A DNA stretch of 64,000 nucleotides, from positions 62,001 to 126,000 of the forward strand of contig JAWMAR010002012.1 in NCBI GenBank assembly GCA_036785375.1. The letters are read 5' to 3'. Position 1 is the first letter of the stretch, and each line of letters opens with the position of its first letter. The stretch is from Leucoraja ocellata (taxonomy: Eukaryota). The position numbers were made by a program, and so were the translations under genes. Shown piece by piece: positions 149-33,900 of the stretch. Below the pieces are notes generated by a model. That model did no database searches. It was given only the letters and a program-made list of their open reading frames with translations, and was not told the origin of the DNA.

Positions 149-184
149 CTGTCGCTTGTAGTGCTATTTTCAGTTCTTTAATTT
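149..184 (-). CDS. 36-nt microexon [12 protein letters not shown]
   Basis: tgttcttccag|AAATTAAAG...GCGACAG|gtgagg. Confidence 0.85.
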
Positions 185-3100: not shown

Positions 3101-6100
3101 NNNNNNNNNNNNNNNNNNNNNNNNNNNNNNNNNNNNNNNNNNNNNNNNNNNNNNNNNNNNNNNNNNNNNNNNNNNNNNNNNNNNNNNNNNNNNNNNNNNN
3201 NNNNNNNNNNNNNNNNNNNNNNNNNNNNNNNNNNNNNNNNNNNNNNNNNNNNNNNNNNNNNNNNNNNNNNNNNNNNNNNNNNNNNNNNNNNNNNNNNNNG
3301 ATGGAGCCCGGTTGAACCTTTCTGGAAAAGGCAACCGTTCCGGCCTTCTTGATTACCATGATATCACCGTGGCTATTCTTGATAAATATATTACATGATA
3401 TTTAGCAGGCTTAGTGGCAAAGGTTCACTTTGTACACTGTTACTCCCAAATGAACACGGTGCCCCGTGTGGGTTGTTCAGAACACTCTTTCTGACTTCAC
3501 CTAAATTAAGTTAAGTAAAAATACAGTTTTATATGCTTTTCTGGGTAGCCCATTGTTTTAAGATAAAGATAACGATGCGCACACCTATTGGCGGATGCGC
3601 CAGGCAGCTGATATACGCTGTGCTGTTTTCATCTCATACTCTTGAATGAATGAACGAATGAATGAATACGTTTATTGGCCAAGTATGTATATATACAAGG
3701 AAATTGCCTTGGTGCTCCGCTCGCAAGTAACAAGTCTTCGTCCTACTGTTCAAAGCATTATTCAGCATTGCGGAGCAGTCTTGTACTAGATCGCCTCTTG
3801 CAATTGCATTACATTTCATGAAACATCAGCCGACGCGAAAACGTGATAACACGTCCAAAACCACTATGCTCTTCCCTCCCCGCCAATTGTCAGTCATATA
3901 TATTTGTTGCCTGTTTCGTGAAATACATCGCTGAATTATTTTACCTCCTCCATTCTGAACCATTTTTTCCTCTGTTAACACACAAGATAAATTATAAAGT
4001 GAAATACGATAAATTCCCCAGCAGAATATTGAGTACATTTGGGAGAATTTGAATCAATCATTTCCAATCAAAGTTTAAATGGCTGTAAAAGTTGTAGAAG
4101 ACTTTACAATTAATTTGGACACCGTTAGAATTTCTAGATTCGTTGTTACGAGTGCCCTGTACCTGCTCACTCCCGTGGGAACCCTGACTTGTCAGACATA
4201 TCCTGGTCTGTATTTTGCAAAGCCAAGATTAAAAAATATATATTTTTCTCTTTTCTCATGATCTAATTTTGACCATCTATGTTTACAGTTTACCCATATA
4301 ATCGTCCCATTTTAAACTCCCAGAGCCATCTGCTCTCGTCAAACTTCCCCGCAGCTAATTTTGTTCGGAAATTCAAAAGTCATTGGAGCTGACGTAGACC
4401 ACTCTGTCCATCAAATCTTCTCCGCCAGGGTCAAGTTTCTCCGTCAATTCAATAAGGATAGGAATTGCGCTGGAAGTAGTGCGGAAGTGGATCGGCACAG
4501 AAATACGCAACTTGTCTCCAGAGAAGACCTTTCCAGCCATCATGATGCACTCCATAATAATTCACTTGAAAGACCGAATGGAGTTATCACTTTTGCAGAA
4601 CGAAATGTAATACTTGTTTTTACACATCCGACAATCACGAATTGAACCTCTGTTGTATATATGATTGAAAGTACCGTGATGATTGAAAGTATTAGCATTT
4701 TTTTCTCCTGACCTGTTTCTTGCTGGGTTCTTGTCAACGCTACGATGTCTAAGTCTGAAAGAAGGTAGATTACGAATGAATTGAGAACATATGATGACAA
4801 TTTACGCCTAAGATTGCTTTCCTGTCTAATTAAAAAATGAAATGTACTTCAATTTCAATTACCCTATATATTCCAAATTCAACAAATGCTCCCAGATATA
4901 TTCTGGTGATGTCCAATAAATCTCGTCATCCAGAAGTATTACAGACGCACTGCTTCCGTATTTTGGCAGTCTCCACGTGTTTCTCCTGCGGGCGTATGTG
5001 GAACTCTTCCCTGCATTTCCTGGTACCCCATAACTCTTTCCAAGTGAATACCACCGTGAGTAAAATCCATCTCATCGTTATCTTGACTGTGCTTCCTTCC
5101 AGACTGCTTCACGTAAAGACATTAGTCAGTGCACAACGTTGCTCCAGCTCCACCATATATGACGTCTGAGATACGTTTTCCCCTAATTGTGGATCGCACA
5201 CCAGCGAAGTTGTTCGACTTTGAATACTGTGTTCTCTGCTCCAATCTACTATGGTCTCATCGAAAGGGAGGATATGGGGTTCTTGCCTTTACTAACCGAA
5301 TCAGCAGGGTTCATGCTCATCGAATTGTATCCACCAATTGCAATTTATGCTACTATCTGCAGCGGCATGCATGTGTCTGCTGCATCAAACGAGTGGTAGA
5401 CACAAAATGCTGGCGTATTTCAGCGGGACAGGCAGCATCTCTGGAGAGAAGGAATGGGTGACGTTTCGGGTCGAGACCTTTCTTCAGACTTTCATCAGAG
5501 GCCTCACCTTTGTTCCCCTCTGCCCACTTCAAAAAGTCCTCAGCAGAGGCCTCACCTTTGTTCTCCTCGTCCCCCACCAAAATGCGCCCCCATCAATCGA
5601 GTGAACGCATAAGCAAACATTTGCAACGAAGAATATTCGAAACGTTTCCCCATCAAAGTATCTTCATTATCGTGATGTTAGAACATTAGAATTCCTATAT
5701 AGGACGGTACGCGCTCGTTAGCAGGAAACAGCATGCATTTGATTAAAATCAAAATGGAAAGATGGACTGAGTCATGGGTGATGATTGCTGACATACAATT
5801 AGAAGGCATGGGGGACTAAAGGAAAAGGACAGTGAGGTTTTACTTTGAAGTTAAAGAATGAACGACATTAAATTCGGAGTGATTTTCCGGTTAGCCCACT
5901 CACAACCACAGTACAGGGATGTGTGATATTTAGTGTCTAATACGTATGGAAAAGTCATGACTAGCCCCAAAGAGAGTGACATACATATCTGATTGGACAC
6001 ATTTACGATTAGAGCAGTGTACGGCATTAACTGTAGATCTTAGATTAATATTAAACAGTCTGTAATATTATAGTCAATCTCATACAACATTTCATGTCAC

Positions 6101-9100
6101 ATTGTTTGCAGTATTTGTTTCATTCTCTTAATTGATGGTAATTTGTTGGATTCAAGAAGCTAGATAAAATAGTCCTGGCTGTTCTGCTCTGCGAATCTTG
6201 CCTGGCATTCACCCTACGTGGACGAGTTCAGGCCGAAACCGCAGGATATGTTTGTAAGAAAGATGACTATAAATGAAGTAAAGTGTTTATTTAGCCTTTA
6301 CGTTTTTTTTGGTTAAACATTTGAGTTATGAGACAGCACTGGAGAATGTTAGGGATCCTTGGTGGTTTATATGACATGGGGCGTAGGGCTGTCGTTTCGG
6401 CTCAATGGTACGTCATGGTGGGAATGGGTGAATCACCTGATTAATGACACCAGTTTCTCCATACAGGAAAGCTTCCTGTCGGTCTAACCGTTTAAACCCC
6501 CTTTTAATTTTAGTTTTCCCCTTGGGATTTTATGCATGTAATGTTTTGCCCAGCTTCTGAGTTTTCGTCAATAATGATATTTGACATTTGACGTTATTTC
6601 CGATTCTCCAGGTATGGTGCCCGTAGTACTGAAATAGCCCAGCGCATCGTTTTTATTTTACACACTCCGAGAATCCTATTTTCTTCATTTCACTATTGCA
6701 GAGTTTTCTCAATATTCTTTATTCTCAATAACCGCCCTTCATTTACATCTTCTCCAGATAGATTACGTGCTATTACAAATACATTATGACGCCTTTCCAG
6801 CAATTACCTAATCCTGTCATCCGCGTGCTCTTGTTAGCCATCCTATCTTTAAAATCACCTTTATCATCTTCACCCCTCTCAGTTCTCCGAATCTCAAAGG
6901 TACCTGTTTTCTGAACATTCCCAATTGTTCCCACCCTGTCTTTGAATTTACGTTGGCTCTTTCCACACCTCTCACTTCAACGAAACTCCTGAACCTTCTT
7001 GAGTATCATGGAAAGTCATCGACCTGAAATATTACATCGTTGCCTTTCTCCAAAGACACCGTCCGACCTGCTATGTGTTTACTGAATTTTATTTAATCTA
7101 TTCTTTTTATGTACGTGTTTCCAATAATTGCAAATAATTGTGTATGTAGAATATATTCACCCACGATAAATTTGAAGGGCGACGAAAGACGGAATCCATA
7201 ATCTAATTTTAAAAGGCTAAAACCATCGATTATAGTAAAACGATTCGCTATAGTTTTGGTATACCAATGGAGAATGATTCATTATACATTTTGTTTTAAA
7301 AATCTGCACATCACTCTCTTCGTGAAGGTCACAAAATGGTGAACAGTGTAATTTTTGTAATTATTATTTGCATAGATTTCCAGAATAATATTGTTCCCCC
7401 CGCTCCGCCAACTATTAAAGACATAGTTGTGGCGCGTGTTGTGAAATATCGCTGAAGTAATTTACCTTCTTCGTTCTGGTGCGCTCTGTCGTCTGTTATT
7501 ACACAGTATAAAAAGGTGTCAGGTGAAATACAATAGATTTCCCTGCAGAATATTGAGAACATTTGGGAGAGTTGTTACTGAATAATTTTCAATGTAAAGT
7601 TTAGAAGGATGTAAAAGTTGCTTGGCGACTCTTGGCGACTCTTGCTACGTGTTTGCACATAGTGTGAGCAGTCGGTTAAGACGTATGTTGCAACCCAATG
7701 AGTAATATGTGTTTATACACCGCAGCACGAGTACTTGCGCCATGATCATTTGAGAAAATAACTTTACTCTGTGTTCCGTTTTATTGTAGCCCTTCTGCTA
7801 TACAAATAAAGGTAACTTAATTACAGTTGTCTAATTTTATGTTTAAGTATTGTATCATTACATGGTCGTGAAGTACATGGCGAGACCCATTGATATAATA
7901 ACATGATGTCGCATAAGCAACAAATTCTGCAGCACCTGAGGATTAAGCACCCTCCACAATTGTTACTCCTGCATCAAAGACGACAATTGTTGAATCCCTC
8001 GCAGTTACGTTTGTAAATCAGAACACCTGACTTCTTCTTGAATATAGGCTGCGGCAGATCCAGGGACGAGGACAGCACAGAGCCGGTCCTGTGCGGCAGG
8101 GGAATTACTCCCGGATTGTTTGGAGTCGGTAGAGTGGCAATGTGCAAGGTCTGGGCAAAGGACATGAATGAATGCGCTATGCTTGTTACCGTCTTGCGGA
8201 AGTTGGAAATACGGTGTTTGTCTCCAGGGGATATATCCCCATCCATGTTCGGATGTATTCCATATAATTCACGAATGACCGAATGGAGCTGAAGCGATCA
8301 TTTTTTACGGAAAGTAAAGTAACATTTGTTTTTACTAATCCAACAACCACGAGAAGTGAACATTTCATTCTCCTGACCTGTGTCTTGCTGCTTTCTTTCC
8401 ATCGTTGTGATATCTAAAATAGAAAGGCGCGTGGATTAGGAATGCATTGGGAACATATGACGACCATTTATGACGTAGATTGTTTTTTCCCCAAAATTAA
8501 CCAATGCAATGTAGTTCAATTTCAAATACCCGTATATATTCCACACCAAACAAAATGTTGCTTGTTTTATTCTGGGGATATCTAATAAAACACATCATCA
8601 TGAAATTTTACATATGCACTGCTTCTGTATGTTGGCTGTGTCCACATATTGTTCATGGGGGCGTGTCTGGGTGACTTCTCGGTATTTTCTGCCCCCTCCT
8701 AATTCTGTCTAAATGAACACAGTTGTGTGCAAAAACAATCTCATCGATATCTTGTTTACGCTCCCTTCACCTCTGATTCGCGTATTGACACGCGCCATTG
8801 GTCATAGTTGCTCCACTCCATCTTATATAACATCAAATGAACCTTTTGCCCATAACCGTGGATCCTACTCCAGCACAATTCTTTGATTTTGAATCACGTT
8901 TCATTTACTATACGCACCTCTGATTTCCTCTACTGTGCTCTCATCTAGAGGAATTGTTTGGGTTTTCTTGTCCTCACTATCTGTAACTGAAGCTTCCATT
9001 GTCTCCGAATTATATGTAGCAACTAAATGCCACTATCTGGATGGCGTGCGTGAGTCTGAATCCATCACACCAGTGAACGTGAAAGGAAATGTTTACAATG

Positions 9101-12100
9101 CATGATATCAGAAATGATTACCCATCAAAGTTTCTATATTGTGGTGATGTTAAAACATCACATTTCATTCATAGGGCGGTCAGTGCTCGTTACCAGGAAC
9201 GGTACTAAAGCATTTAAAATTCAAATGGGAAGGTTGGATTGATCAAATCATGGGTATGATTGCTGATTTAAACAATTGAAATGCATGGGAAAAGGCCAGG
9301 TAGGTCTTCCTTTGTAGTTGAAGAGCGAACTGCATGACATTTTGAGTGACACACTGAATTCAGGGATGTGTAATATTTAGTGTCTAATACGCATGGGAAA
9401 GTCATGTCTATTCACAAACGTATCTGATTAGATACGATTACGATAGGAGCAGTGTACGACATTAAATGTAGATCTTAGATTAATATAAAACAGTCTGTAA
9501 TATTGTAGTCAATCTCATACAACATTTCATGTCACATTGTTTGTAGTATTTGTTTGTTTCCCTTAATTGATGGTTATTTGCTAGATTCAATAAGCCTGAT
9601 AAAATAGTCCTGGCTCCGCGAGGCCGAAACCGCAGGATATGTTTGTAAGAAAAGTGACTATAAATGAAATAAATAGTTTATTTAGCCATTACGTTTTTGT
9701 TGGTTATTATCCATTTTGCTTTAAAATACTACAAATCACTCTCTTCACGAGGGTCACAAAATGATGAGCAGAATCATTTCTGTGATTATTATTGAGTATA
9801 ATTTATATAGATTTCCAGAATGATGTTGCTGTTCTTCCTCCACCAACTGTCAGATAAATAGTTGTTGCGCGTGTTGTAAAATACATCGCTGAAGTGATCT
9901 ACCTGCGTCATGCTGAAGTATTGGTTCGTCTGTTAATACACAAGGTAACAATGTTCCACGTGAAATACAATAGATCCTCATACAGAATATTGCGTACATT
10001 TGGGAAAATGTTTACTCCATCATTTTCTATGTAATGTTTAAAAGGATGTAAATGTTACTTGGCAACTCTTGTCAGCGTGTGGCATGCTACGTATTAGAAC
10101 ATGTCTTGCGTAGTCGGTCACGACATATATTGCAAACCCCCCTCCCACACAGTCCCCTCCCTTACACACACTTCTCTCCCCCACGCACCCATCCCACACC
10201 CTCACACCCACATCCCCTCCCGCATACGCTCTCCCGCACAAACCCCTCCACCACCATCCCTTCTCCACACCTCCCTTCACCCAACCCATTCCACCAACCC
10301 TTTTCCTCACATCCCCATCCCCCACCCCCCCTCCCCACCCCCCTCCCCACACCCCATCCATCACACACCCCTCCCTCACTGATCCCCCTTCCCCACACAC
10401 CCCATCCCCACACCATCTCTCCCACACCCCCCTCCCCACACACACCCCTACCCCCCTCCGCCAACATCTCTCCCCCACCCCCACACCACGCCATCCCCCA
10501 CACCACGCCTTATTCACTTGAATGACCGAATGGAGCCGAAGCGATGACATTAGCAGTTCTTTATCCTGACCTGTTTCTTGCAGCTTTCTTTTCAACATTG
10601 TGATTTCTAAAATGGAAAGACGTGTGGATTAGGAATGAATTTGGAACATATGATGACAACTCGTGCCTTAGATTGATTTCCTACCGAATTAAACAACGAA
10701 GTGCAGTTCAATTTCAATTAGCGGTATATATACCACACCCAAAAAATGCTCCCAGATTTATTCTGGGGATATCTATTTAAGCTGATAAAGACGTATTGCA
10801 GATTCACTGCTTCTGTATGTTGGCAGTTTCCATGTGTTTCTCACGGGGGCGTATCTGGAACTTGTCAGCATTTCCTGGCACCTCCAAACTCTATCTAAGT
10901 GAACACAATGTTAAGCAAAATCCACGTCATCGTTATCTTGTTTATACCCCCTTCTACTCTGCTTCACATAATTACACGAGCTAATGCACATAGGTACTCC
11001 AACTACACCATAGATAACAGCTGAGTTGTTTTTTTCTCCGAACTCTGGATCTTACTCCAACAAAGTTCTTCGATTGTGAACAACGTGTACTTTATCATCT
11101 ACACCTCTGCTTTCCTCCAGTGTGCTCTAATTTAGAAGATTTGTATGTGGTTCTCATTCTAGCTATCCGCTTCAACAGCTTCCTTAGTCACCGAATTATT
11201 TCCAGCCATTGCAACTGGATGCTTCCATCTGGCCGGTGTGTGTGAGTGAATCCATCAAACGGGCGAACGTGTAAGTGAACGTTTGCTATGCTGAATATTG
11301 GAAATGATTTCCCATCAAAGCATCTTTATTGTGGTGATATTAGAACATTAGAATTCCTATATTGGAAGGTTCGTGCTCTTCACCAGGAACATAATTAATG
11401 TGGTTAAAATTCAAAAGGGATGGTTGGATTGACTGGATCGTCATGGGTATGATTGCTGACTGATACAATTCCAAGACCAGAGACATTCCTTTGACGTTGT
11501 AGACAGGATGCATTCCATTCTGAGTGAGTTCCCGGTTGGTTCACCCACAACCACACGGAGTTCAGCGATGTGTAACATTTAGTGTCTCATTCGCTTGGGA
11601 AAGATGTGACTATCTACATAAAAACTGACATACGTATCTGAGTAGAAACAATTACAATTAGTGCAGTGTACGGCACTAAATTTAGAGCTTACATGAATAT
11701 AAAACACTGCAGTACTTTAGTCAATCTCATACAACATATCATGTCACATGTTTTGTAGGATATGGTTGACAGAAAGGTGAATACAAACGAAGTAAATCAG
11801 CTATTCAGGCTTTATGTCTTTTTGGATAAACTTTCGAATTCTGATTCGCAGGCGAGAGAAAGTTAGGGATCCTTGGTGGCATCTATGACAAGGAGCGTAG
11901 AACTCGATTCGGTTGGATAGTATTTCATGATGTGAAAATGTGAATAACACGACCAATTTAATCAGCCTATCCTTACAGGAAAGCGCGCTGTCAATCTAAT
12001 CATTTAAACCTCTCTTTATTTCAGTTTTTCCCGTCGCATGTTCTGCATCCTTCTGAATTTTCTGCAATATTTGACATAAGGTCATCGACATGTGACATTA

Positions 12101-15100
12101 CTTCAGTTTCTCCAGTCATGGTGCCCGGCGTACTGAAATAGCCCTGCATTTCACTAATGCACAAGTTTGTTTGTTCCTTGTGCTGAGTAACCACCCTTCA
12201 TTTACTCCTATTCCATTTAGATGACGTGCCACTACCAATACACTATGACGCTCCTTTAGCAATCACCTATTCTTGTCGTCTGTGTGCTCTTGTTAGCCAT
12301 CATGTCTTTGAAATTACCTTTGTCATCCTCACCCTTTCACTTCTATTGATCTCAAAGATGCCCGTTTCGTGAACATTCCCAGTTCCCGTAGCAAGTCGTC
12401 GACCTGAAATATTACTTATTTGTCTTTCTCCAGAGACGCTATCTGACCTGCACAAATTTACCAGAATGTTCTTTAATCTGTTCTTTTTACTGAAGTGTGC
12501 CCATTAATTGCAAATATATGGCTACGTAGAATATATTCACCGCGATACGTGTGAAGGGTGACGAAAGACGGAATCCATAATCTTACTTTAAAAGGCGAAA
12601 AACACAGATTATAGTAAAATTATCCATCATGTATTTGGTATACAAATGGAGAATGAATCTTTAAACACTTTGCTTCAAAATCCTACAGAATAGAATAATT
12701 TCTGTGATTATTATTTGTATACATTTTCAGAATAATTTTGGTCTTCATCCTCCACCGACTGTCAGAGAAATAGTTGTTTCACGTGTGGTGAAGTATTTAG
12801 CTGAAACAATTTACCTGCTTCTTTCTGACGTGTGGTTTCGTCTGTTAATGCACAAGATAGCATAGTGTCAGCTGAAATGCAATAGATTATCCCGTAGAAT
12901 ATTGAGTACATTGGGCGAATGTTTACTCAAGCATTTTCAATGTAAAGTACAAGATGTAAATGTAAAATATGTAAAGTATGTAAAAGATGTAAATGTTGCT
13001 TAGCAACTATTGTCAGCGTGTGCCATGCAACGTGTTGGCACACAGCGCGATCACGACAAATGTAGCAAACAGATGTGTAACATGTGGTAATACACTGGCG
13101 CCAAAATACTTGCGCCACGATCACGTGAGAACATGATTTTACTCTGCAACCAGTTTTAATGTCTTCTACAATTTAATATTGGACCTGTCATTGGTGATTT
13201 AATCAAATGTATTAAATGTTATCAGTATTGTACCATTATACATTGATACACGGATTTTATCATCACATCGTTGTGAGGTAGACGGGGACACCCATTAATG
13301 TAACAACAGGACATGGCATATGTAACAAATTCTGTAGCAACTGTGGAATTGGGGATGTGGATTAATGGGCAAATAACTAATTGGGTATTAGAATGGGGAT
13401 GTCCAAGGACTTGACAGATGACCCGAATGAATACGTCAAGGTTATTACCGACTGGGTAAGGAATTACGCTGGATAAATTGCGGAAGTTGCAAGACGCAAA
13501 AATATGGAGTTTGACTCCAGAGAATATCTCCCAACCCATAACTCCGGTATATTCCATACTACTTCACTTGAATAACCGAATGGAGCTGAAGCGATCACTT
13601 ATGCAGAACGAAAAGCAATACTTGTTTTAACATATCCAACAACCACGTAGACGTGAACTTCTGTTGTACATATACGTTGATGACTGAAAGTATTAGTTAT
13701 TCCTTCTCCTGACCTGTTTCTTGCAGCTTTCTTTTCAACGTCCTGATTTCTAAAATGGAAAGACGCGTGGATTATGAATGGATTTGAAACATATAATGAC
13801 CACTCAGGTCTTAGGTTGTTTTCCTGTCTAATGAAACAATGAAATGAAGTTCAATTTCAATTACCCGTGCATATTTCACACCAACAAAATGCTCCCTGTT
13901 TTATTCTGCGGATATCTAATAAAACTCATCATCAAGGGGTGTTGAAGATGCACTGCATCTATATTCTGAAAGTTTCCAAGTGATGACAACGTTCAGCAAA
14001 ATGCATGTCATCGTTATTTTGTTTATGCTGTCTTTTACTCTGTATCACGTAATTACACGAGCAAATGCACACACTGTAGTTGCTCCAGCTCCATCATAGA
14101 TAACATCTGAGATCATTTTTCCCCTAACCGTGGATCATACTCCAGCAAAGTTCTTCACTTTTGAATAACGTGTCCTTTATCATACGCACCTCTGCTTTCG
14201 TCTACTGTGCTCTCATCCAGAGGATTTATATGGGGTTTCTTGTCCTCGCTATCCGTATCAACAGCTTCCATTGTCACCGAATTATATCCAGCGATTGCAA
14301 CTGGATGCCCCTATCTGGCCGGCGTGCGTGAGTCTGAATCAATCAAACGAGTGAATGCATAAGGAAACTTTTACTATGCTAAATATTTTGGCAGTTCAGG
14401 CATGTTCAGACTCGGTTTAGCATTGTGTTGACGTTAGAACACCAGAATTCCTATAAGTCCGTGCTCGTTACCAGGAAACAGTATGAACGTGGTTAAATTT
14501 CAAAAGGGAAGATTGGATCGACCATGTAAATGATTACTGAATTATACAATTAGACGGGAGTGGAGACCAATGGAAAAGACCAGGGAACTGGTTCTTTTGA
14601 AGTTGCGACAGAACTGCATTTGTATGTAATATGTAGTGTCTAACTCCCACGAGAACGACGTGACGATCTGCATATAGACAGACATACGTATCTGGGTAGA
14701 TATCATTAATGAGTTAGAACAGGGTACAGCACTCAATTTGGAGTTTACGTTAATATAAAATCGTCTGTCGTTTTGCAGTCAATCTCATACAACATATCGT
14801 GTCACATAGTTTGTATTATTTGGTTTAATCATTTAATTGATGGTCCTTGGGCAGTTTTAATAAGCGAGATTAAAATAAAAACCTTATTGTTTAGCCCCGA
14901 AAATATTGCCTCGCAGTTACCCTACGTGGACGGGTTCATGCGGAAACGTGAGGGTATACAGTATATGAAAGAAAGGTGACTGCAAATCAAGTACAACTGA
15001 TATTCAGTCTTTTCATTTTTTTGGTCAAAACTTTCAAGTTATGATACAGGAGTAGTCAATGATAGGGATCATTGCTGGCATTGGTGGCTAGCGTTTCGGC

Positions 15101-18100: not shown

Positions 18101-18919
18101 AACGATATCTAGGTGAACACAATCGTGATAAAAATGTCTTTCATCGTCATATAGTTTATTCTCCCTTCTACTCTACTTACGTGAAGCAGAGTAGAAGAGA
18201 CAGCTCACAATTCGAGCCAATTCACATAGTTGCTCGAGCTCCATCATAGATAACATCTGAGATGATATCCTCTAATCGTGGAACCTACCCCAGCAAAAGT
18301 CCTTTATCATACTCACCTCTGCTTCAATCTACTGTGCTCTCACGTAGAGGATTTATATGGGGGTTTTGTCATTATGCTCTCATCTGTCGCCGAATTATAT
18401 CCAACAATTGCAATTGGATGCCAGCGTACTTGAGTCTGAATCCATTAAACAAGTGAACGTGTAACCAAACTTTTACAATGCTGAGTATTATAAATGATTA
18501 CCCATCAAATCTTCTTCATTATGGTGATGTTAGAACATCATAATTCCTATATATGACGGACTATGCTCGTTACCTGAAAACAGTGTGAATGTGGTAAAAA
18601 TTCCAAAGGGAAAGTTGGATTAACAAAATTGGCATGGATGTGATTACTGAATTGTACCATGAGAAGGAAGTGGCGAGCAAATGAAAAGACCGGGGAACGT
18701 CTCCCTTTGCAGACAGAACTGCAGACAGAACATGCAGACAGAACTGCATTATATTCTGAGTGGGTTCCCGGTTGGTCCATCCACAACCACATAGAATTCA
18801 GGGATGTATAATATTTAGTGTCTAACTCGCACTGGAAAGACGTGGCCATCTGCATTAGTCATGTACAGCACTTTGTGGCAACAGTAGTTGTTTTAAAGTG
18901 CTCTATAAATAAAGTTATG

Positions 18920-18991
<72 letters not shown>

Positions 18992-21900: not shown

Positions 21901-24900
21901 CTGCCATTCACAATACATCATGACGCATTTTCAGCAAACACATATTCTTGTGATCCATGTGATCTTGTTGGCCATCCTGTCTTTGAAATGTCCTTTGTTA
22001 TATCCACCCACCTCACTTCTACGAAACTCCTGCACATTCTTGGGTTTCATGGAAAGTCATTGAGCTGACATATTACATCTTTGCCTTTCTCCAAATTCGC
22101 TGTCTGGCCTGCTATGTTTTTCCAGAATTGTATTCAATCTATTCGGAAGTGTGTCCAATAACTGCAAACATATGGAAACGTACAATATATTCACCCACGA
22201 TAACTGCGAAGTGCAACGAAAGTTGGAATCCATAATCTTATTTTAAAAAGGCTAAATTCATAGATGATCGTAAAACGATTTATTATATTTTTGGTGTACC
22301 AATGAAAACTTATTCTTTATACATGCTGCTTTAAAATTCCACGCATCACTCTCGTCGTGGAGGTCACAAAATGGTGAACAGTGTAATTTCCGGGATTATT
22401 ATTTGTCTAAAATTCCCGAATATTTTGGTGTTACCACTCCAGTTGTTAGATAAATAGTTGAGGCCTATCGTGAAATACGTCACTGAAGTAATTTACCTGT
22501 TTCGTTTTGATGTATGTTTCCCCCTGTCAATACACAGGTAACAGGATATAAGGTGCAAGGCAATAGATTCTCCTGCAGAATATGGAGTACAGTTGGGAGA
22601 ACTTTTACTCAATCATTTTCAATGCAAAGTTCAAAAGGATGTAAAAGTTGCTTGCCAACTCTTGTCAGCACATGGCATGCTACGTGATTGCACATAGCGT
22701 GAGCAGTCGGTCACGGCGTATGTTGCAAGCTAATGTGTAATATGTGCTTTACAATGCGGCAAGAATACTTGCGCCATGAGTACGTCAGAACATAATTTTA
22801 CTCTCTGTCTCCTTTCAATTTTGCCATTCTGTTACACTAATATTGGAGTTGTCAACGGTAACAGTTACATTTGTTTATTTTTTATGTTTAAGTGTATCCT
22901 TACATGGTCGTGAAGCACACGGGGAAACCCAATAATATAATATAATGACAAGGCAAATGTAACAAATTCTGCAGCATCTGAGGATTAAGCACCCTCACCA
23001 CTGTTATTCCAGCTTCAAAGATGCCTTTAGTTACATCCCTCGCAGTTACCTTTTGAAACCAGAACAGCTGGCATCTTTTTCAACATAGACTGCGGCACCT
23101 CCAGCGACGAGGACTGCACAGAACCGATTCTGTGACACAGGGGACTTACTCCGGGATTGTTTGCAGTCGGTAGAATGACGATATGCAAGGAGTCGATATA
23201 GAACATGAATGAATACGCCATGGTTGTTACCGACTCCGCAACGAACTGCGCTGGATGAAGTGTGGAAGTTGGAAGACGCAGAACTACGCAGTTTGGCTCC
23301 AGAGGATATATCTCCACCTGTGACTCGGATGTATTCCATACTATGTCAATTAAATGACCGAATGGAACTGAAGCGATTATATTTGCAGAACGAAAAGTAA
23401 TACTTGTTTTTACATATCCAACAACCACGGAGAAGCGAACCTGTTTCTTGCAGCTTTCTTTTCAACGTTGTGATTTCTAAAATGGAAGAACGTGTGGATT
23501 ATGAATGAATTAGGAATATATGGTGACCGCTAAGGGCGTAGATTGCTTGCCAACCTAATTAAACGATGCTATTTCAATTTCAATTACCCGTATATATTTC
23601 ACACCCAACACAATTTTCCCAGTTTTATTCTGGGGATATCTAATAAATCTTGTTATCCAGATGTATTACAGATGCACAGTTACTGCATTTTGACAGTTTT
23701 CATGTGTTTCTCACGGGGGCGTATCTGGAACTCTGGTCAGCATTTCTTGGCAGCTCCTAACTCTATCTACGCGAACACAACCGTAAGCAACCGTAGCTAT
23801 GGGCACCCTACAAATCCAAAGCGTAGCAAAGGGCACCCTCCAAATCCAAGGCATAGCCACCATATTGCCACCCTACCTACGTCCAAGACACCTCACTCGC
23901 AGTTCGTCTCCTCCATGACTTCCGTTTTCCTGTTCGCCACTCCCTCATCATTACCATGGATGGCCAGTCACTCTACTCCTCGATCCCCCATCAGGAGGGT
24001 CTTAACGCCCTCCCTTTCTTCTTCGACCGCAGAACCAACCAATCCCCGTCTACAAATACACTCTTCCACCTAGCGGAGCTGGTCTTTACAACTGTTCCTT
24101 TGACTCCTCCCATTTCCCAACTGTTCCTTTGTCTCTCCCATATCTTCCAAACCCAAGGCGTACCAATGGGCGCGCGCATGGGCGCCATCTATGCCTGCGT
24201 CTTTGTAGGATACGTCGAACAATCCTTGTTCGAGGATTACCGTGGCCTTATCCCCGAACTCGACCGCTACATTGACGACTGCATTGGTGCAACCTCCTGC
24301 ACCCATACAGATCTCACTGACTTCATCCATTTCACCATTAACTTCCATCCGACACTCAAATTCACCTAGACCATTTACGACATATCCCTACCGTTTGTAG
24401 ACCTCACTATCCCCATTGCATGTAACAGACTACTGACCGACATCTACTACAAACCCACTGATTCCCATGTCTATCAGGACTACACTTCCTCCCACCCTGC
24501 TTCCTGTGAGGACTCTTATCTTATCCCCTACTCCCAGCTCCTCCGTCTACGCCGCATCTCCACCCAGGATGAAGTCTTCCAAACCAGGGCATCGGATATA
24601 TGCTCATTCTTTAGAGAACGGGGGATCCACTCTTCGACTATAGATGAGGATCTCAACGGGGTCTCCTCTATGTCCCGTAGCTCAGCTCTCACCCCCCCCC
24701 CCCCCACCCCCCACTTCGGATTTCTAGCATTTTAAGTGTTTATCTGCTTTTCAATTAACTGCAATTTTTGACATGAAGTATATGAATTTGGCGTTATTTG
24801 AGTTTTCCCACTCATGATGCCAGTAATACTGACTTTGCCCACTACATCACTTTATTTCAGGTTTCCAGAGAATGCTCTCTTCTCCATGTTACAATTGTAG

Positions 24901-27900
24901 AGTTTTGTTTGCTCTTTTGTCCGTGTGTTTTTTTCTCAGCAACCTCCGTTCATTTATATATCCTCCAAATACATCATCTGTCATCCACAATACATCATGG
25001 CCATTCAGTGATCAACTATTCTTAGAAACTATTCTTAAATTCTTAAAAAATCCTCAAAAATGGAAAGATACGTGGATTATCAATGAATTGGGAACATATG
25101 ACGTAGATTGCCTTTCTTCCAAATTAAACAATGAACTAGAGCTAAATTTCAATTACCCGTATATATTCCACACCGAACGAAATGTCCCTAGTTTTATTCT
25201 GGGGATATCTAATAAAACACACATTTGACTAATTCCGCTCATTGTGCCCGCCGGACTGAATTAGCCCAGCACATCACTTTATTTCCGATTTCCAGAGAAT
25301 GCTGTCTGATCCATGTCACAATTGTAGAGTTTGCTTGCTCTTTTGTCCCTGTCCTTTTTTCCTCGGTAATCTCCCTTCATTTACACCTGCTCCAAATACT
25401 TTACCTGCCATTCACAATACACCATGACGCACTTTCAGCAATCACCTATTCTTGGGATCCATGTGTTCTTGTTGGCCATCCTGTCTTTGAAATTGGCTTT
25501 GTTATATCGACCCCTCTCACTTCTACGAAACGCCTGCACATTCTCGGGTTTCATTGAAAGTCATCGACCTGAAATATTACATCTTTGCCTTTCTCCAAAG
25601 ACGCTGTCTGACCTGCTATGTTTTTCCGGAATTTTATTCAATCTATTCTTTTTTTTGAAGTGTGTCCAATAATTACAAATGGAAATGGAGAATATATTCA
25701 CCCACGAAAACTGTGAAGGGCAACGAAAGATGGAATCCATAATCTTAAGGCTAAAATCATAGATGATCGTAAAACGATTCAATATACATTTTGTATACAA
25801 ATAAAGAATGATTCTTCATAACATGCTGCTTTAAAATTCTACTCAACACTCTTGTCGTCACAAAATGGTGAACAGTGCAATTTCTGAGATTATTATTTGT
25901 CTAGATTTCCCGAATAATGTTGTCAGAGTAATAGTTGTTGCGCCTGTCGTGAAATTCATCGCTGAAGTACTTTACCTGCTTCACGTTGACGCATTATTTC
26001 GTCTGTTAATACACAGGTAACAGGATATAAGGTACAATACAATAGATTCCCTTGCAGAATATGGAGTGCATTTGGGAGAAATTTTACTCAATAATTTTCA
26101 ATGTAAAGTTCAAAAAGATATAAAAGATGCTTGGCAACTCTTGTCAGCACGTGGCATGCTACGTGATTGCACATAGCGTGAGCAGCTGGTCACGACGTAT
26201 GTTGCAAGCTAATGTGTAATATGTGCTTATACGATGCGGCAAGAATACTTGCGCCATGATCACGTGAGAAAATAATTTTACTCTGTATCTCGTATCAATG
26301 TTGGCATTCTCTACACTAATATTGGAGTTGTCAACGATAACTTCGTTACCTTTATCTATTTTGTATGTATAAGTATATCATTACATGGCCGTGAAGTACA
26401 CGGGGTGACACATTAATATAATAATATGAAGAGGCATATGTAACAAATTCTGCGGCATCTGAGGATTAAGTGCCCTCCACCACGGTTATTCCAGCTTCAA
26501 AGATGCCTCTAGTTGCATCCCTCTCATTTTCCTTTTGAAACCTTAACAGCTGGCATATTTTTGAATACAGACTGCGGCACCTCCAGCGATGAGGACTGCA
26601 CAGAACTGGTACTGTGAGAGAGGGGAATTACTCTGGGATTGTTTGCATTCGGTGGAATGACGATATGCAAGGACTCGATAAAGAACCTGAGTGAATACGT
26701 CACGCTCGTTACCGACCCCGGAAGGAACTGCGCGGGACGAAATGCGGAAGTTTGAAGAGGCAGAAATACAGATTGTCTTCGGAGGATATTACCCCATCCA
26801 CGACTCGGATATATTTCATAAAAATTCACTTGAATGACCGAAGGGAGCTGAAGCGTTCACTTTTGCAGAACGAAAAGCAATACTTGTTTGTTCACATCCA
26901 ACAACGACGCAGAAGTGAACTTCTGTTGTAGATCTACCTTGATGATTGAAAGTATCAGTATTTTATTCTCCTGACCTGTTTCTTCAAGCCTTTCTTTCAG
27001 CTTTGCGATATCTAAAATGGAAAGTGGATTGGGAATGAATTGGATACTTATGAATACCACATGCCGTGGCTTGTTTTCTGCCTAATTAACCAATGCAGTG
27101 TGGTTCCATTTCAATTACCCGTATATATTCCATTCTGGGGATATCTAACAAAACTCGTAATTCAGAAGTATTATGGAGCACAGCCTCTGTATTTTAGTAG
27201 TTTCCATGTGATTCTCAGGAGGGCGCGTCGCGAACACTTCTCGGCATTTCCCGCCACCTCCCACTCTATCTGAGTGAACACACTCAAGCAAAAACAATGT
27301 TATTGTTGTCTTGTTTATGGTCCCTTGTTCTCTGATTCACGCAATGACACGAGTCAATGCTCACAGTTGCTCCATCCCCAATCGAAAATAACATCTGAGA
27401 TACTTTTGGGATTGACAAAATTGGCATGGATGTGTTTATTGAATTATTCAATTGGAAGGAAGTGGATAGATTTCCAGGATAATGTTGCTCTTCCCCCTCC
27501 ACCAACTGTCAGATAAATAGTTGAAGCAATTTACCTGCTTCTTTCTGATGCATGCTTCCGTCTGTTATTACACAAGGTAACAGGGTATCAAGTGAATACA
27601 ATAAATTCCACAGCAAAATATTGGGTACATTCTGGAATTTTTTTACTGAATCAATTTCAACGTAAAGTTTAAAAGGATGTAAAATTTGCTTGCCAGCCTG
27701 TTTTGTCAGCCTGCTGCATGCGAGAGAGAAGGTGAACAGCGTGCAGTAGTTGTGCACGTAGGCACAAACGACATCGTGAAGAAGATAAAGGAGGTTCTCT
27801 AACGTGACTTCAGAGAGTTGGGAAGAAGACTGAAATGCCTGATTTCTCGGGTGGTTATCTCTGGATTGCTTCCAGTACCTCGTGCTAGTGAGGACAGGGC

Positions 27901-30900
27901 CAGGGCGATAGGGGATCTGTATGTGTTGCTGAGGGGCTGCAGCAGGGAGCAATTATTTAGATTTATAGACCACTGGGATCTCTTCTGGGTTGGAGCGTAT
28001 TCCCCATTATGTGTCCTTCTGAAGTTGATAATCAGCTCCTTGGTCTTAGAGGTGTTTAAGGAGAGGTTGTTATTTGAGCACCAGTCCGCCAGGTTCTGCA
28101 CCTCCGCTCTGTAGTTTGTTTCATCACTGTTGGTGATCAGCCCGATCACCGTTGTGTCGTCTACAAACTTGACAATGGTGTTGGTGTCGAATGCAGGAAC
28201 ACAGTCGTGTGCGAAGAGGGAGTAGAGCAATGGGCTCAATACACAGCCCTGTGGTGTGCCGGTGCTCAGGGTGGTAGTGGAGGACAGGCGCGGGGCCAGT
28301 CTCACTGCCTGCGGTCGCTCCGTCAGGAAATTCAGGAGCCAGTCGCATATCGACGAGCTGAGGCACGGACGCCACTCGGAGAATAGTCGCATCCTCGCCA
28401 CAGAATCTCCTGTCCGCTCCTCGGACAATGGAGTCACCCACTCACTAGGGCTCTGTCCGACGTCGGTCTCGCCTGTCGCGTCCCATCTCTAGGACTGGAG
28501 CCACCGACATGCCCGCCACTCGGACTGAAAACATCGTCTCCCCGGACAGTTCCCAAGAGGGCGTACCTGTTTTCATTAGCCACAGCCACAGCCACCTGGG
28601 CCTTCTGCACTCCACGATTTCCACCCGTGTCTACCTCACTGTAGGCACCTGAGGATTAAGCACCCTCTGACATTTTAATTCCATCATCAAATATGACTAC
28701 GGTTCCATCCCTCGCACTCACTTTGGGTAATCGGAATACATGGCTGGGATAGTTCTTCTTGAAAATAGGCTGCAACTGAAGAGCGCAGCTCCAGCGGCGA
28801 GGACTACACAGCGCTGGTACTGGATGACCGCGGGTTTACTCCGGGATTGTGTGTAGTCGGTAGACTGGCGGTGTGGAAGGATTCGGCACCAAACCTGACC
28901 GAATACCTCGGTGGTTACCGACTTCATAATAAAATATATTGGCAAGTGCGCTCCCACCAATCCATTCAAGTGTTCTTCAAACGTCTTGGATGAACCAGGT
29001 CCGCAATCCACTGAGAACCAAACCTCAGTAGTTCATGTCTGGCGATGGAGATTCATATCAGAGGTTCAGGAAACACTTCGATAAGGCCATCTGAAACGAC
29101 GAGACGCTTTCATTGTAAATTGGAGGATGCGACGGACGATTGGCATCTACGAGAGTACTTGGACACTATCACAACCTACAAGGCGAAACCAAGTGCCAAC
29201 TTATGTGACAGTGTGGCCACATTCCCAGATGAGCTCAAGGGTATTATGTACACTTGGAAAACTAGAATGCGGATTTTTAGGATTTCTTGAATTCTAGGGC
29301 CAGTGTAGCCCCGGGTGGCATTGAAATCTCAGTCACCGAGGCCGATGTCAGAAGATCCTTCATGATGTTGCACCCTAGGGAAGCGCCTGGGCCTGATTGT
29401 GTGATTGGTCGCCTTCTCAAAACCCGTGTGGATGTTTTAATGGTAAATTTAAAGGGCCACAGTCATTTTCTTGTAAAATTGAGTATCGTATAGATAATAT
29501 GTCCGTTCAGCACGAGGCAAAATAAAATCGTGCTCAGCAAAGAAGACGGCGTGGAGCAAAAGAGCACATGTTAATGTAACTGACATCCAGCGTGTGCACG
29601 ATTCTCGATACACATGCGAAGTGCGAACCTTATAGTTCTCTGCCATTTCAGCAGCTCGTTCTCAACACGTTGCACGGTCACGTTTCTCCATCAATTCAGT
29701 AAGGTTAGGAACTGCGCTGGACAAAGTGCAGAAGGGGGAAGATACTGAAATACGCAAATTGTCTCTGGAGAATATCGCTCCACCCATTCCATAATAATTA
29801 ACTTGAATGACCGAATGGAGCTGAAACGATCAATTTTGCAGAACGAAAAGGAGAATAAGGAGTAAGCCTTAAGAATAAGGAGTAAGCCATTTAGAACGGA
29901 GCCGAGGAAACATGTTTTCTCACAGAGAGTGGTGAGTGTGGAATTCTCTGCCTCAGAGGGCGGTGGGGGTGTGTTCTGTGGATGCTTTCAAGAGAGAGCT
30001 AGACATTGCTCTTAAAATAGCGGTCAGGGGATATGGGGAGAAGGCAGGAACGAGGTACTGATTGGGAATGATCTGCCATGATCACATTGAATGGCGGTGC
30101 TGGCTCGAAGGGCCGAATGGCATACTCCTGCACCTATTGTCTATTGTCTATTGAAGAGTAATACTTGTTTTTACATATCCGACAACCACGGATAAGTGAA
30201 CTTCAGTTTTATATTTACCTCATTGATTGAAAGTTTTAACATTTCTTTCAACTGACCTGTTTCTTGCTGCTTTCTTTTTAACGTTGAGATTTCTAAATTG
30301 TAAAGAAGCGTGGATGAGGATAAGATGACGACTTGGGCCTTAGATTAATTTATTGTCTAATTAAAAATAAAATGTAGTTCAATTTCAATTACCCGTATAT
30401 ATTCTAATGCTCAATTTATTATTCATTCTTATGAACGCCAGCGAGTACAGGCCAAGCGCATATAAACGCTCATCACAGGTTAACCTACTCATTCATGGGA
30501 TCATTCTTGTAAACATCCTCTGGACCCTCTCCAGAGCCAGCACATCCTTCCTCAAATATGGTGCCCAAATTTTGTGCAAACGTGCTTCAAAAGAGACAGA
30601 TGTGAGCGTAAAAGTTGAAGGTATGTTGCATCATTGGATGTGACACCAGTTGTCAGGCGGGACATTACGAACTGTTCGGCTCGTGACACTATGCGATGGA
30701 TCTGAGGAACAAGAAAGGGAAGATCACCTTTTTCGGGGTGTACTTCAGGGCATCAAATAGTCATTGGAAGTTAAAAGAGCAGATGTCTAATAAGGTTGTC
30801 ATAACAGGGGATTTTTAGTTTAGCAATATTGACTGGGAATGTCATAGCGCGAAGAATGAAAATCTATACCTATGTCGAATATTGCTACATAACTGCAAAG

Positions 30901-33900
30901 GGTGACAAAGGACGGAAACATAATCTTATTTTAACAAGCCAAATTCATAGATGAAAGTAAAACGCCTTATTGTACTTTTGGTATACATATGGAGAAGAAT
31001 TCATTGTACATTTTGCTTTATAATTCTGCACATGTCACACGTTGTGAAGGTCACAAAAAGGTGAGCGTAGTAAGTTCTGTGTTTACTGTTACTATAGATT
31101 TCCGGAATAATGTTCTTCTTCCTCCTCCTCGAACTGTCAGAGAAATACCTGTTGCCCGTGTCGTGAAATACATCGCTGAAGTAATTTACCTCCTTTGCCC
31201 AGACGCATTTTTTCCTCTGTCAATACACAAAGTCATTAGGTATCAGGTGAAATACAACAGATTCCCCTGCAGAATATTAAGTACATTTGGGAGAATTTTA
31301 CTCAATAGTTTTCAATGTATTGTTTAAAAGAATATAAAAGTTGCTTGGCAATTCGTGTCAGAGCGTGTCATGCTGCGTGTTCGCACTGAGCGTGGGCAGT
31401 CAGTCACGCCGCATGTTGAAAATTAGTGAGCAATATGTGCTTATACACTTGTGTCAATTATTTTACCCTGTGACCTGCTTCAATGCTGCACTTCCTCTAC
31501 ACTAATGGAGTGTCAACGGTAATTTAATTATATTTGTTTATTTATTTATGTTTAAATATTGTTCCATTACATTGTCGTGAGATTTGCAAGAGATCCATTA
31601 ATTTAATAACAGAACATCGCTTCACCTGCCTTCAAATCACACTTCCAAACCAGGTCTATTTTGCAACTCCAGGTGTTTCAAAATAATATTATTTTTTCTA
31701 TATTCCCAGGATCTAACTTTGAACAGATATCCGCGTTTATAGTTTACCCATATGGTCACCCAACGTTTAATCTCCCACGGCCATCATAACTCAACAAACC
31801 TCCCTGCAGCTTATTTTATTCATGTCGGAAGTCCTATGAGCAGAATCTGGCCATTCATCCCATCGAGTCTACTCGGCCATTAAATCATGGCTGATCTATC
31901 TTTTCCTCTCAACCCCATTCTCCTGTCTCCACAGACATGGTGAAACTTCAGTGTGCTCTCTCGACAGCAAGCCAATCAAGTTGCCGGCAAAATGTCCAAA
32001 ATCGCAAAACGGAAATCTTCACTTATGGTCTCGGCTAAGCCCAAGGTAATATTATATTGTTACATATGTTCATATGCAACAAGTTCCCCAGTACCTAGAA
32101 ATGAAGCGCCCTGCATCATAGTTATTCCACCATTAAAGATACCTAACGTTCCATCTCTCGCACTCACTTTGGGAAGTCTGAACACCTGTCTCTGCTGCTT
32201 CCTGGTGAATACAGGGGCAGCGATTGAAGAGGCGCAGCTTCAGCTGCGAGGACTGCCCAGAGCCGGTCGTAGACGGAAGAATTGCTTCGGGTTTATTTCG
32301 ATTCGGTAGACTGGCGAAATGCAAAGACTCCGGAACGGACCTGACCGAATGCGTCACGGTTGTTACCGACTTCATAAGGAAGTGCGTGGAGAAGATTGCA
32401 CGAGGAAGTGTGTGGGGGGGGTGGTCTCCTAACCCACCCGAGTGTTACCCAACCGCAAACCTTGAATGGACCAGTTCCGCAATCGTCTAAGGACTAGATC
32501 TTTGGAATTCAATTCTGGCGATGCAGATTCACGTAGGACTTCCAGTTACCACCTTGACAAGGCCATTAAAAAGATTCATAGATATTTTCACTCTACATTG
32601 AAGGATGGGACGAACGTTTGGCAATCACGGGACATGCACATCATCAGCTCTTACAAAGCGAAACTAAATGCTATCTTACATGACACTGGAGCATCATTCT
32701 CAGATGAGCTCAATGAACGCACATTGAAAAGAAGCACACTGATGTCCTGCTCTGGTCCCCATAGTTCTCGATCACATTGTAATCTCAGTCACCGAGGCCG
32801 ATGTCAGAAGATGTTTCATGAAATTGCACCGCGGGACCTGACGGTGTGCCTGGTCGCCTTCGCAAAACCTGTGCGGGCTAACTGACTGGAGTATTTTGCG
32901 CACGCTTTCAGAATCTCCCACAATAATTCACTTGAATGACGGAGTTGAAACGCTTACTTTTGCAGAGCTTACGTAATGTTTGTTTTTACTTATCTAACAA
33001 ACCATGGAGGTGAACTTCTGTTGTGTTTATATTGACGAGTTTGTATATTGTGTATATATACATTGATGATTGAAAATATTAGCATTTCTTTCTCCTGACC
33101 TGTTTCTTGCAGCTTTCTTTTCAACGCTGTGATTTCTAAATTGGAAAGAATCGTGGATTAAGAATGAATTGGGAACATAAGATGACCACTCAGGCCTTAG
33201 TTTGATGTCTTGTCTAATTCAACAGTGACATGTGGTTTTATTTCAATTACCGGTATATATTCCAAACACAACAAATGCGCCTCGTTTCATTTTGGGGATA
33301 TCCAATAAAACTCGTCATCCAGAAGTATGTAAGCTGCATTTTTTCTGTAGTTTGGTAGTATCTATGTGTTCCTCACGCTGTCGCATCTAGACCTCTTCCC
33401 GGCATTTTGTGGCCTTTCCTAACTCTATCTAAGTTAACGCAACCGTGAGCTAAATCCATTTAATCGGTATCTTAACATTGAAATATTGTCACTGACAACT
33501 CCGTTTTCACTTAATTATATCCCCTGCAAGACCTCCTCCAATTAATCCAACTCCATTCGCAGGACGGAGCCAGCCTTCCTGATGAGCCTGTTGATTATGT
33601 TACCGTCCGCGGCCTTCGCCCTGTCACACTAGCACATGACAACTTAGAAGATTGCACTGGCCACCACCGATTGATAGAACATCTGCAGCATCTCACTGCT
33701 GACTTTAAAAGAACGGGGCCTCCTTAGAAGGTACAGACGGTTCTGTCCCTTCTTCTGCACTGCCGCAGTGCCTAAGCATTACTGGACCAGTCTAGTTTAC
33801 TGTCCAGCTAAATTTCAAGGTACTGCACTGCATGGTAAACTGTACATCCACACCCTTGATGGAAACAGAGGCAGGGGTGTTCCTCTACTCCTAAAGTCCA

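Follow-up and report, generated by a model that had tools for sequence, protein, structure and literature searches.

A tandem micro-exon array in Leucoraja ocellata lies within a 510-kb constrained exon run that ends in a B30.2 domain and probably encodes a long coiled-coil rod

The 64,000-nucleotide (nt) stretch of the Leucoraja ocellata genome analyzed here (assembly GCA_036785375.1, contig JAWMAR010002012.1, positions 62,001 to 126,000; G000:C2012:62001-126000 in our numbering, hereafter the window) carries on its minus strand an old tandem array of very short exons (3830..33480), which forms exons 121–139 of a run of ~175 micro-exons that ends in a B30.2 exon. Self-BLAST identified ~10 mutually related units between 3.8 and 33.5 kb of the window, and a splice-plus-peptide scan placed 19 exons on the minus strand between 3945 and 33135, nine of 36 nt and ten of 27 nt. 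All 19 have exact length, AG/GT borders, and a frame that is open (in phase 1), as an earlier interpretation of the letters of this stretch (the sequence-only reading) had proposed. Neighboring 36-nt exons lie 2.2–5.7 kb apart (mean ~3.5 kb). Identity between units is 71–88% in the exon flanks and ~66–89% in the self-BLAST blocks, and the array introns hold high-copy repeats, visible as read-depth spikes. Over the whole window, the scan returned 41 minus-strand rows and no plus-strand row, a contrast that is partly circular since the same contig (C2012) supplied the 48 exons used to train the scoring model. A collinear copy of the window, 1.56% different, lies on contig C201. We treated it as the other haplotype, a recent duplicate being the alternative; the selection test described below is valid either way.

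From its upstream end, the array begins with a 36-nt exon at 33100..33135 and a 27-nt exon at 31190..31216, and the alternation continues with 30257..30292 (36 nt, one silent difference from the other copy), 27535..27561 (27 nt), 26976..27011 (36 nt), and 25976..26002 (27 nt). A partial unit follows at 25054..25221, where the flank that precedes the 36-nt exons occurs for a tenth time near 25060; the exon itself is absent. The next 36-nt exon (23441..23476) has a weak donor, GTTCGC in the window vs GTCAGG on C201, following a ~50-nt deletion right after the GT that is present in the window copy only, and this change may cause allele-specific skipping. Two 27-nt exons then adjoin each other (22497..22523 and 20035..20061); the intervening 36-nt exon is absent, which moves the heptad anchor by 2 residues. 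Loss of whole exons thus happens in the array, with these two cases. The remaining exons are 17783..17818 (36 nt), 16546..16572 (27 nt), 13714..13749 (36 nt, one silent difference from the other copy), 12815..12841 (27 nt), 10571..10606 (36 nt), 9903..9929 (27 nt), 8378..8413 (36 nt), 7466..7492 (27 nt), 4713..4748 (36 nt, with a second acceptor 6 nt upstream that would make it 42 nt), and 3945..3971, the 27-nt exon that closes the array. Trees of the unit flanks were mostly unresolved, so we do not claim an order of duplication.

The run to which the array belongs extends past both ends of the window and occupies 510 kb of the plus strand of C201 (G000:C201:1606321-2116728). When C201:1605000-2116200 was scanned, micro-exon matches spanned 1606321 to 2115215, with 175 sense vs 1 antisense match at score 14, and thresholds from 20 to 12 gave 147–195 sense vs 0–2 antisense. 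Although the scoring model came from 48 C2012 exons, 98 of the 175 exons fall outside the training region, and a control stretch of 163 kb downstream gave 1 and 2 matches only. The micro-exons comprise 91 of 27 nt, 75 of 36 nt, and 9 of other lengths (21 to 51 nt); 27 and 36 nt alternate at 121 of the 174 junctions, the largest spacing is 21 kb, and strand and phase are common to all exons. The first exon found at the 5′ end has an in-frame ATG. Siblings with homologous introns (69–98%) exist for 53 of the 175 exons, a few of these links probably arising through shared repeats. A product that used all exons would have about 1,985–1,990 residues, ~1,810 of them in a rod that is rich in E, K, and L and the rest in the terminal domain. 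About 1,810 of 1,985 predicted residues would thus come from exons of at most 51 nt, in keeping with the design of micro-exon genes, whose coding regions are mostly tiny frame-neutral exons. The sequence-only reading, which had taken the array for the whole feature, covered 11% of the exon run and missed its B30.2 end. The 5′ end is boxed in by another run, of 40 such exons, which starts on the opposite strand 20 kb further upstream. A CpG-rich stretch at C201:1605000 was considered as a promoter but is not claimed, as it could be a repeat. No RNA data set was listed as matching the B30.2 exon, and coverage from a small RNA-like run fell on repeats only, which says nothing on expression.

The last exon of the run (L037:6208-6728) is in phase 1 and contains 173 codons and a stop. 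It matched the Pfam SPRY model (E = 5e-15), the PRY model did not score, and the B30.2 domain of BTN3A1 was the best match among solved structures (E = 1e-26, residues 3–172). A C-type-lectin end, as on a CD23-like stalk, had been considered and was dropped once the B30.2 exon was found; a literature search on it gave nothing pertinent. All fetched TRIM- and butyrophilin-type proteins were then compared by tblastn with 1.1 Mb around the gene; 45 of the first 160 queries carried a RING-like motif, and several carried immunoglobulin (Ig) and membrane segments. Once the matches of queries P0036 and P0013 had been set aside as repeats, what remained was the B30.2 exon plus two short, weak matches, with no RING, B-box, or Ig exon in the 1.1 Mb. 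Searches inside the run found no further B30.2 exon, and those ahead of it found no signal exon. Nor did the 20 kb preceding the first micro-exon yield a convincing membrane exon, although a short diverged one could escape detection there without RNA.

A 27-nt and a 36-nt exon together encode three heptads, as the sequence-only reading had noted. Its heptad pattern held in part. Within the array, the "a" positions and L14 are hydrophobic in 8/10, 9/9, 6/9, and 9/9 exons, while the other two "d" positions are mostly non-hydrophobic (1/10 and 0/9). The four fixed positions are likewise hydrophobic over the whole run (73/91, 70/75, 71/75, and 61/75 exons). The claim that duplication strictly keeps the register is not supported, given the one break inside the array and the many register changes along the run. 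As such breaks are common, the rod is likely to be segmented or flexible. A two-copy complex prediction for the Leucoraja relative P0151 gave no decisive result (score 0.01).

To evaluate constraint, we compared the array exons with the introns near them, which show 0.135 deviations from the column majority per copy and 0.0154 indel events per base. At these rates, the 19 exons would have accumulated 10.3 indels (P = 3e-5), 3.9 stops (P = 0.017), and splice-dinucleotide losses in 8.8 exons (P = 8e-6), and none of the three was seen. The indel result held when both whole-exon losses were entered as indels (P = 8e-4). Hence the contrast drawn by the sequence-only reading between decayed introns, rich in indels and repeats, and exons kept under purifying selection for frame and splice sites is borne out.

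Constraint also reaches the amino acids. Across 76 exons (2,361 nt), the two copies of the locus show 9 differences, of which 6 are silent and 3 are replacements, where the flank rate predicts 32.3 replacements (P = 6e-11; Fisher P = 0.003). The silent rate between copies (0.013) is near the flank rate (0.018), and constraint therefore acts on the protein. The array alone showed 2 silent and 0 replacement differences vs 7.6 replacements expected (P = 5e-4), the 33 exons upstream of it 3 silent and 2 replacement vs 14.7 expected, and the 24 downstream 1 silent and 1 replacement vs 9.9 expected. Six 5′ exons with a copy on contig C3990 gave 1 silent and 0 replacement vs 4.0 expected. In all, 76 + 6 exons were tested and 1 was not aligned, leaving 92 of the 175 outside the comparison; probes at C201:1.70 and 1.79 Mb found no second copy.

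Divergence between sister copies within the array followed another pattern. The dN/dS values were 1.44 and 1.11 (pN/pS bootstrap intervals 0.5–5.9 and 0.55–2.3). After CpG correction, the 27-nt exons deviate more than introns (57 vs 36.9, P = 0.001), and the 36-nt exons deviate like introns (34 vs 42.8 expected, P = 0.10). The replacement-to-silent ratio is 3:6 between locus copies vs 71:12 between sister exons (Fisher P = 0.0015), or 0:2 when the array alone is taken (P = 0.025). This contrast, which uses two haplotypes and paralogues and is no formal test, hints at relaxed or positive selection after duplication.

Paralogous loci share this organization. Close paralogues of the B30.2 exon in the genome have 46% and 37% identity, and all three examined are preceded by the same exon type. 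At score 14, C201 carries runs of 95, 40, and 175 micro-exons, contig C253 a plus-strand run of 32 and a minus-strand run of at least 75, and the short contig C3233 19 such exons and a B30.2 exon; a different scan gave ~14 for paralogue C253a. Related loci total ~450 such exons in less than 1.9 Mb of genome. The two C253 runs start head to head ~21 kb apart (1820415/1841541), as do those of C201 ~20 kb apart (1586038/1606321), and C3990 is laid out likewise; on C201 and C253, these starts may share a promoter region. On C253, a young array (1597353-1624287, L173-L175) holds ~5.3-kb units that are ~96% identical and contain four pairs of 27- and 36-nt exons, which shows that growth by cassette duplication is recent there and makes this array the best place to seek copy-number variation. 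Together with the 53 sibling exons of the main run, it bears out the earlier proposal that the rod grows by tandem duplication of a three-heptad cassette.

The 95- and 40-exon runs of C201 (1145357-1431866, plus strand, and 1438578-1586038, minus strand) converge on a stretch of Ns at 1433054. No B30.2 exon was found in the sequence of these runs that was examined (L159-L162, L131-L150, L121-L130, L074-L084), and their peptide series, alike by eye, suggest an inverted duplicate or a scaffolding break. B30.2 exons are far more numerous in the genome than the micro-exon clade, with at least 150 matches spread over many contigs, which amounts to a large expansion of TRIM or butyrophilin type.

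Protein searches found relatives in Narcine (77% identity in B30.2), Hypanus (68%), Scyliorhinus (64% and lower), Leucoraja, Cetorhinus, Hemiscyllium, and Callorhinchus, under automatic names such as TRIM-like (TRIM39-like, TRIM69-like, TRIM58), A33-like, and butyrophilin-like. In a tree of B30.2 domains, 22 of the 152 sequences form one clade (support 1.0) with no well-supported sister group; the tree left out proteins above 1,000 residues except three from teleosts, and the three closest counterparts, found later, are absent from it. A domain scan of 13 relatives detected only SPRY (with PRY in 2) and no RING, B-box, or Ig family in any of the 13, and hydropathy indicated no membrane helix in the relatives of the clade. 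Atlas look-alikes were generic SPRY clusters only. A single-domain search for longer homologues returned none among 129 candidates, and a profile search among proteins of 791–2255 residues gave 5 matches, none in the clade (three placed in the tree, one omitted by length), each being weak evidence of absence. The predicted RefSeq model of the Narcine counterpart (XP_069797409/411) joins, in order, counterparts of exons 143, 144, 146, 147 or 149, 154, and 175; exons 171 and 172 are matched more weakly. The AlphaFold2 model of this protein has a single helix at residues 4–75 (72 residues), a loose linker, and a beta-sandwich. A literature search, largely outside subscription journals and not covering supplements, found no description of the family.

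Taken together, these results indicate that the window array is a tandem-duplicated block within a constrained, B30.2-ended run of ~175 exons over 510 kb, and that it probably encodes part of a long helical rod, predicted to dimerize as a coiled coil. Every exon being in phase 1 and a multiple of three, any of them could be duplicated, lost, or skipped with the frame kept, and each 27 + 36 pair would add three heptads; the rod would therefore have grown in repeated bursts of cassette duplication. New copies would diverge first at or above the neutral rate and then be held constant, so that each repeat likely matters by its own sequence, for in-register pairing or partner binding, beyond length alone. 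The searches found no exon for a signal, membrane, Ig, RING, or B-box segment, which makes a cytosolic product likely. We infer a cytosolic coiled coil, with predicted pairing into dimers, whose action would resemble that of the inner half of butyrophilins and BG proteins or of a RING-less TRIM. The dimer would serve as a spacer that displays two B30.2 domains, most likely as an adaptor in innate immunity or one tied to the cytoskeleton, and exon skipping would yield shorter forms.

Several observations weigh against this reading. Divergence among the array copies looks neutral by itself, with intervals that span 1. The weakened donor of window exon 23476 counts against constraint, and a 36-nt exon at C201:2018046 carries a 1-nt deletion in an A-run, either a sequencing error or a broken allele; its C2012 counterpart, 22183 bases left of the window start, is intact. 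Only four of six core heptad positions per cassette are hydrophobic, one third being polar, and along the whole run the register changes at 43 of 165 junctions, although missed exons may explain some of these changes. The Leucoraja model XP_055510696 has a hydrophobic start, possibly a signal peptide. One continuous mRNA joining all ~175 exons is an unproven prediction from the genomic exons, and the suggested immune or cytoskeletal role is drawn from analogy only. Finally, all annotated relatives found are short (172–460 residues), and the Narcine model begins immediately downstream of the array, with matches to no more than ~8 of the run's last 33 exons.

The short models point to an alternative that we regard as rather unlikely, in which the micro-exons are a cassette library, the full rod is rarely made, and transcripts use subsets of exons through skipping or internal starts to give many short rod-B30.2 isoforms. 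Every exon is indeed frame-neutral, and in the predicted RefSeq models of relatives, isoforms are told apart by blocks of 9 residues (Scyliorhinus, Narcine twice, Callorhinchus) or 6 residues, the two of XP_069797409/411 by the last 9-residue block. The absence from the Narcine model of counterparts of most of the last 33 exons would fit as well. However, short models are also expected if short reads fail to map onto exons as small as 27 nt. In this ray, several of the "skipped" exons are duplicated copies whose introns are homologous, and Narcine may simply lack them; most exons of the small paralogue C253a are matched in order, by eye, by the Narcine model P0154.

The sequence-only reading had favored a molecular ruler, in which the rod counts only through its length and register and unequal crossover adjusts the number of copies. 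The three-heptad cassette, the recurrence of growth by duplication, and the wide variation in exon number among paralogues all suit it, and the young C253 array (1597-1624 kb) fits it better than the window array does. We nevertheless consider it improbable for the window. The array copies there are old and only ~65–88% alike, both locus copies hold the same 19 exons, read depth outside repeats showed no multi-fold pile-up in three runs, and organism B has matching stretches at ~96–97%; single-letter differences of the reads inside exons were left unused, as sister units pile up at 85% likeness. Present-day tuning of the array by unequal crossover is thus disfavored. The register also breaks within the array, and length as the sole target of selection fares no better, since replacement changes are purged in each copy, whose own protein sequence is now held fixed.

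It seems equally improbable that the 510 kb contain several separate genes or transcription units, with the array in a rod-only product apart from the B30.2 domain. This would account for the Narcine model beginning right after the array and for the neighboring 95- and 40-exon runs, which meet at the stretch of Ns with no B30.2 exon in the examined sequence. Yet the main run has one strand, one phase, and spacing of at most 21 kb, and no second B30.2 exon was found in it; the missing ends of the neighbors may sit in the stretch of Ns, and C3233 holds 19 such exons as well as a B30.2 exon. That the array is a dead or neutral repeat, with exon-like relics in duplicated intron DNA, is the least credible explanation and was already disfavored: the dN/dS values of 1.1–1.4 and the intron-like conservation of the 36-nt exons would suit it, but 19 exons without a stop, an indel, or a splice-dinucleotide loss, and without a replacement between locus copies, would not.

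The closest known design to the constrained micro-exon rod is that of the heptad exons of chicken BG and butyrophilin. In the reports on chicken BG, a long presumed coiled coil is encoded by 13–36 exons of 21 nt with split first codons (PMC4046983), exon number varies between genes, alternative splicing occurs, and selection is reported on the tail (PMC4046983, PMC5938342). The same reports describe an Ig-V domain and a membrane span, long tails in place of the B30.2 end of mammalian butyrophilins, and roles of these tails in regulating actin-myosin and in viral disease (PMC4046983, PMC5938342). The ray gene resembles BG in its many tiny heptad exons, 175 here, and differs from it by the alternating 27/36-nt lengths, the exon number, the B30.2 end, and the lack of any Ig or membrane exon found. 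Butyrophilins place heptad repeats before B30.2 (PMC4046983, PMC12841164). This arrangement is shared, and BTN3A1 is the best solved-structure match by sequence, but butyrophilins have few heptads, IgV/IgC domains, and a membrane span, and the ray family is its own clade.

TRIM proteins (TRIM21, TRIM58, pyrin) share with the ray gene a coiled coil, of predicted pairing here, and a C-terminal B30.2 domain, and most of its relatives carry automatic names of the TRIM39-like, TRIM69-like, TRIM58, or A33-like kind. The TRIM coil is encoded by few larger exons and pairs antiparallel. RING and B-box, though, were not found in 13/13 relatives or near the gene. Membership hence fails for butyrophilin and BG, for want of Ig, and for TRIM, for want of RING or B-box. 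The micro-exon genes (MEGs) of schistosomes are encoded largely by tiny symmetrical exons, an arrangement that permits skipping, and have high dN/dS (PMC4350168). The coding region is here too mostly tiny frame-neutral exons, but MEG products are secreted flatworm proteins to which no homology is expected, whereas a heptad rod and a folded end domain are encoded here. Three teleost proteins of 1,600–1,700 residues (P0162-P0164, from Channa, Anabas, and Esox) also have ~1,400–1,500 residues of predicted rod before a B30.2 domain. They lie outside the ray clade, have signal-peptide-like starts by eye, and are possibly a parallel invention.

We tentatively extend the rod-B30.2 reading to a family in sharks, rays, and chimaeras with 27/36-nt exon rods, 40–175 micro-exons in several members of this one ray, head-to-head clusters, and, at the window gene, a ~1,800-residue rod with a combinatorial set of skipped forms. 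As part of that reading, standard annotation may well capture only the last few exons of the window gene, and the family is likely an annotation blind spot, with ~450 exons in less than 1.9 Mb, yet database models that end at 460 residues. If the reading holds, the window gene has, to our knowledge, one of the largest micro-exon counts among vertebrate genes. A vertebrate gene with ~175 constrained micro-exons would then be a test bed for the splicing of long runs of 27–36-nt exons outside neurons and for coiled-coil lengthening by exon duplication. The heptad-exon design of BG and butyrophilin, known from chicken and mammals, would extend to a cartilaginous-fish B30.2 family, at ~5 times the largest BG exon count, and a recognition or immune-type protein would be expected to show the pattern seen here, in which copies first diverge fast and then come under strong constraint.

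Elsewhere on the minus strand of the window, the scan placed 12 further micro-exons upstream of the array (34628..62067), with starts at 62067, 59944, 53819, 53682, 51532, 50807, 47631, 45772, 42476, 39616, 37593, and 34654, and a weak extra candidate at 57873; no intron homology to the array was found for these 12. Downstream of the array lie a 27-nt exon (2020..2046) and a 36-nt exon (149..184), from which the run goes on for ~120 kb to the B30.2 exon. The introns also contain ordinary short tandem repeats at 41894-42041 (units of 20–64 nt), 56466-56584 (21 nt), and 18915-18990 (TTA). On C201, a 1,517-codon open frame inside an intron of the minus-strand run (~1547000-1551905, minus strand, L080-L081) looks like an LTR-retrotransposon polyprotein, as judged by eye. 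Beyond the B30.2 exon, the downstream neighbors at C201:2157972 and 2183049-2191448 (L041, L044, L045) look, from their translations, like a Shaker-type potassium channel gene and a Shisa-type gene.

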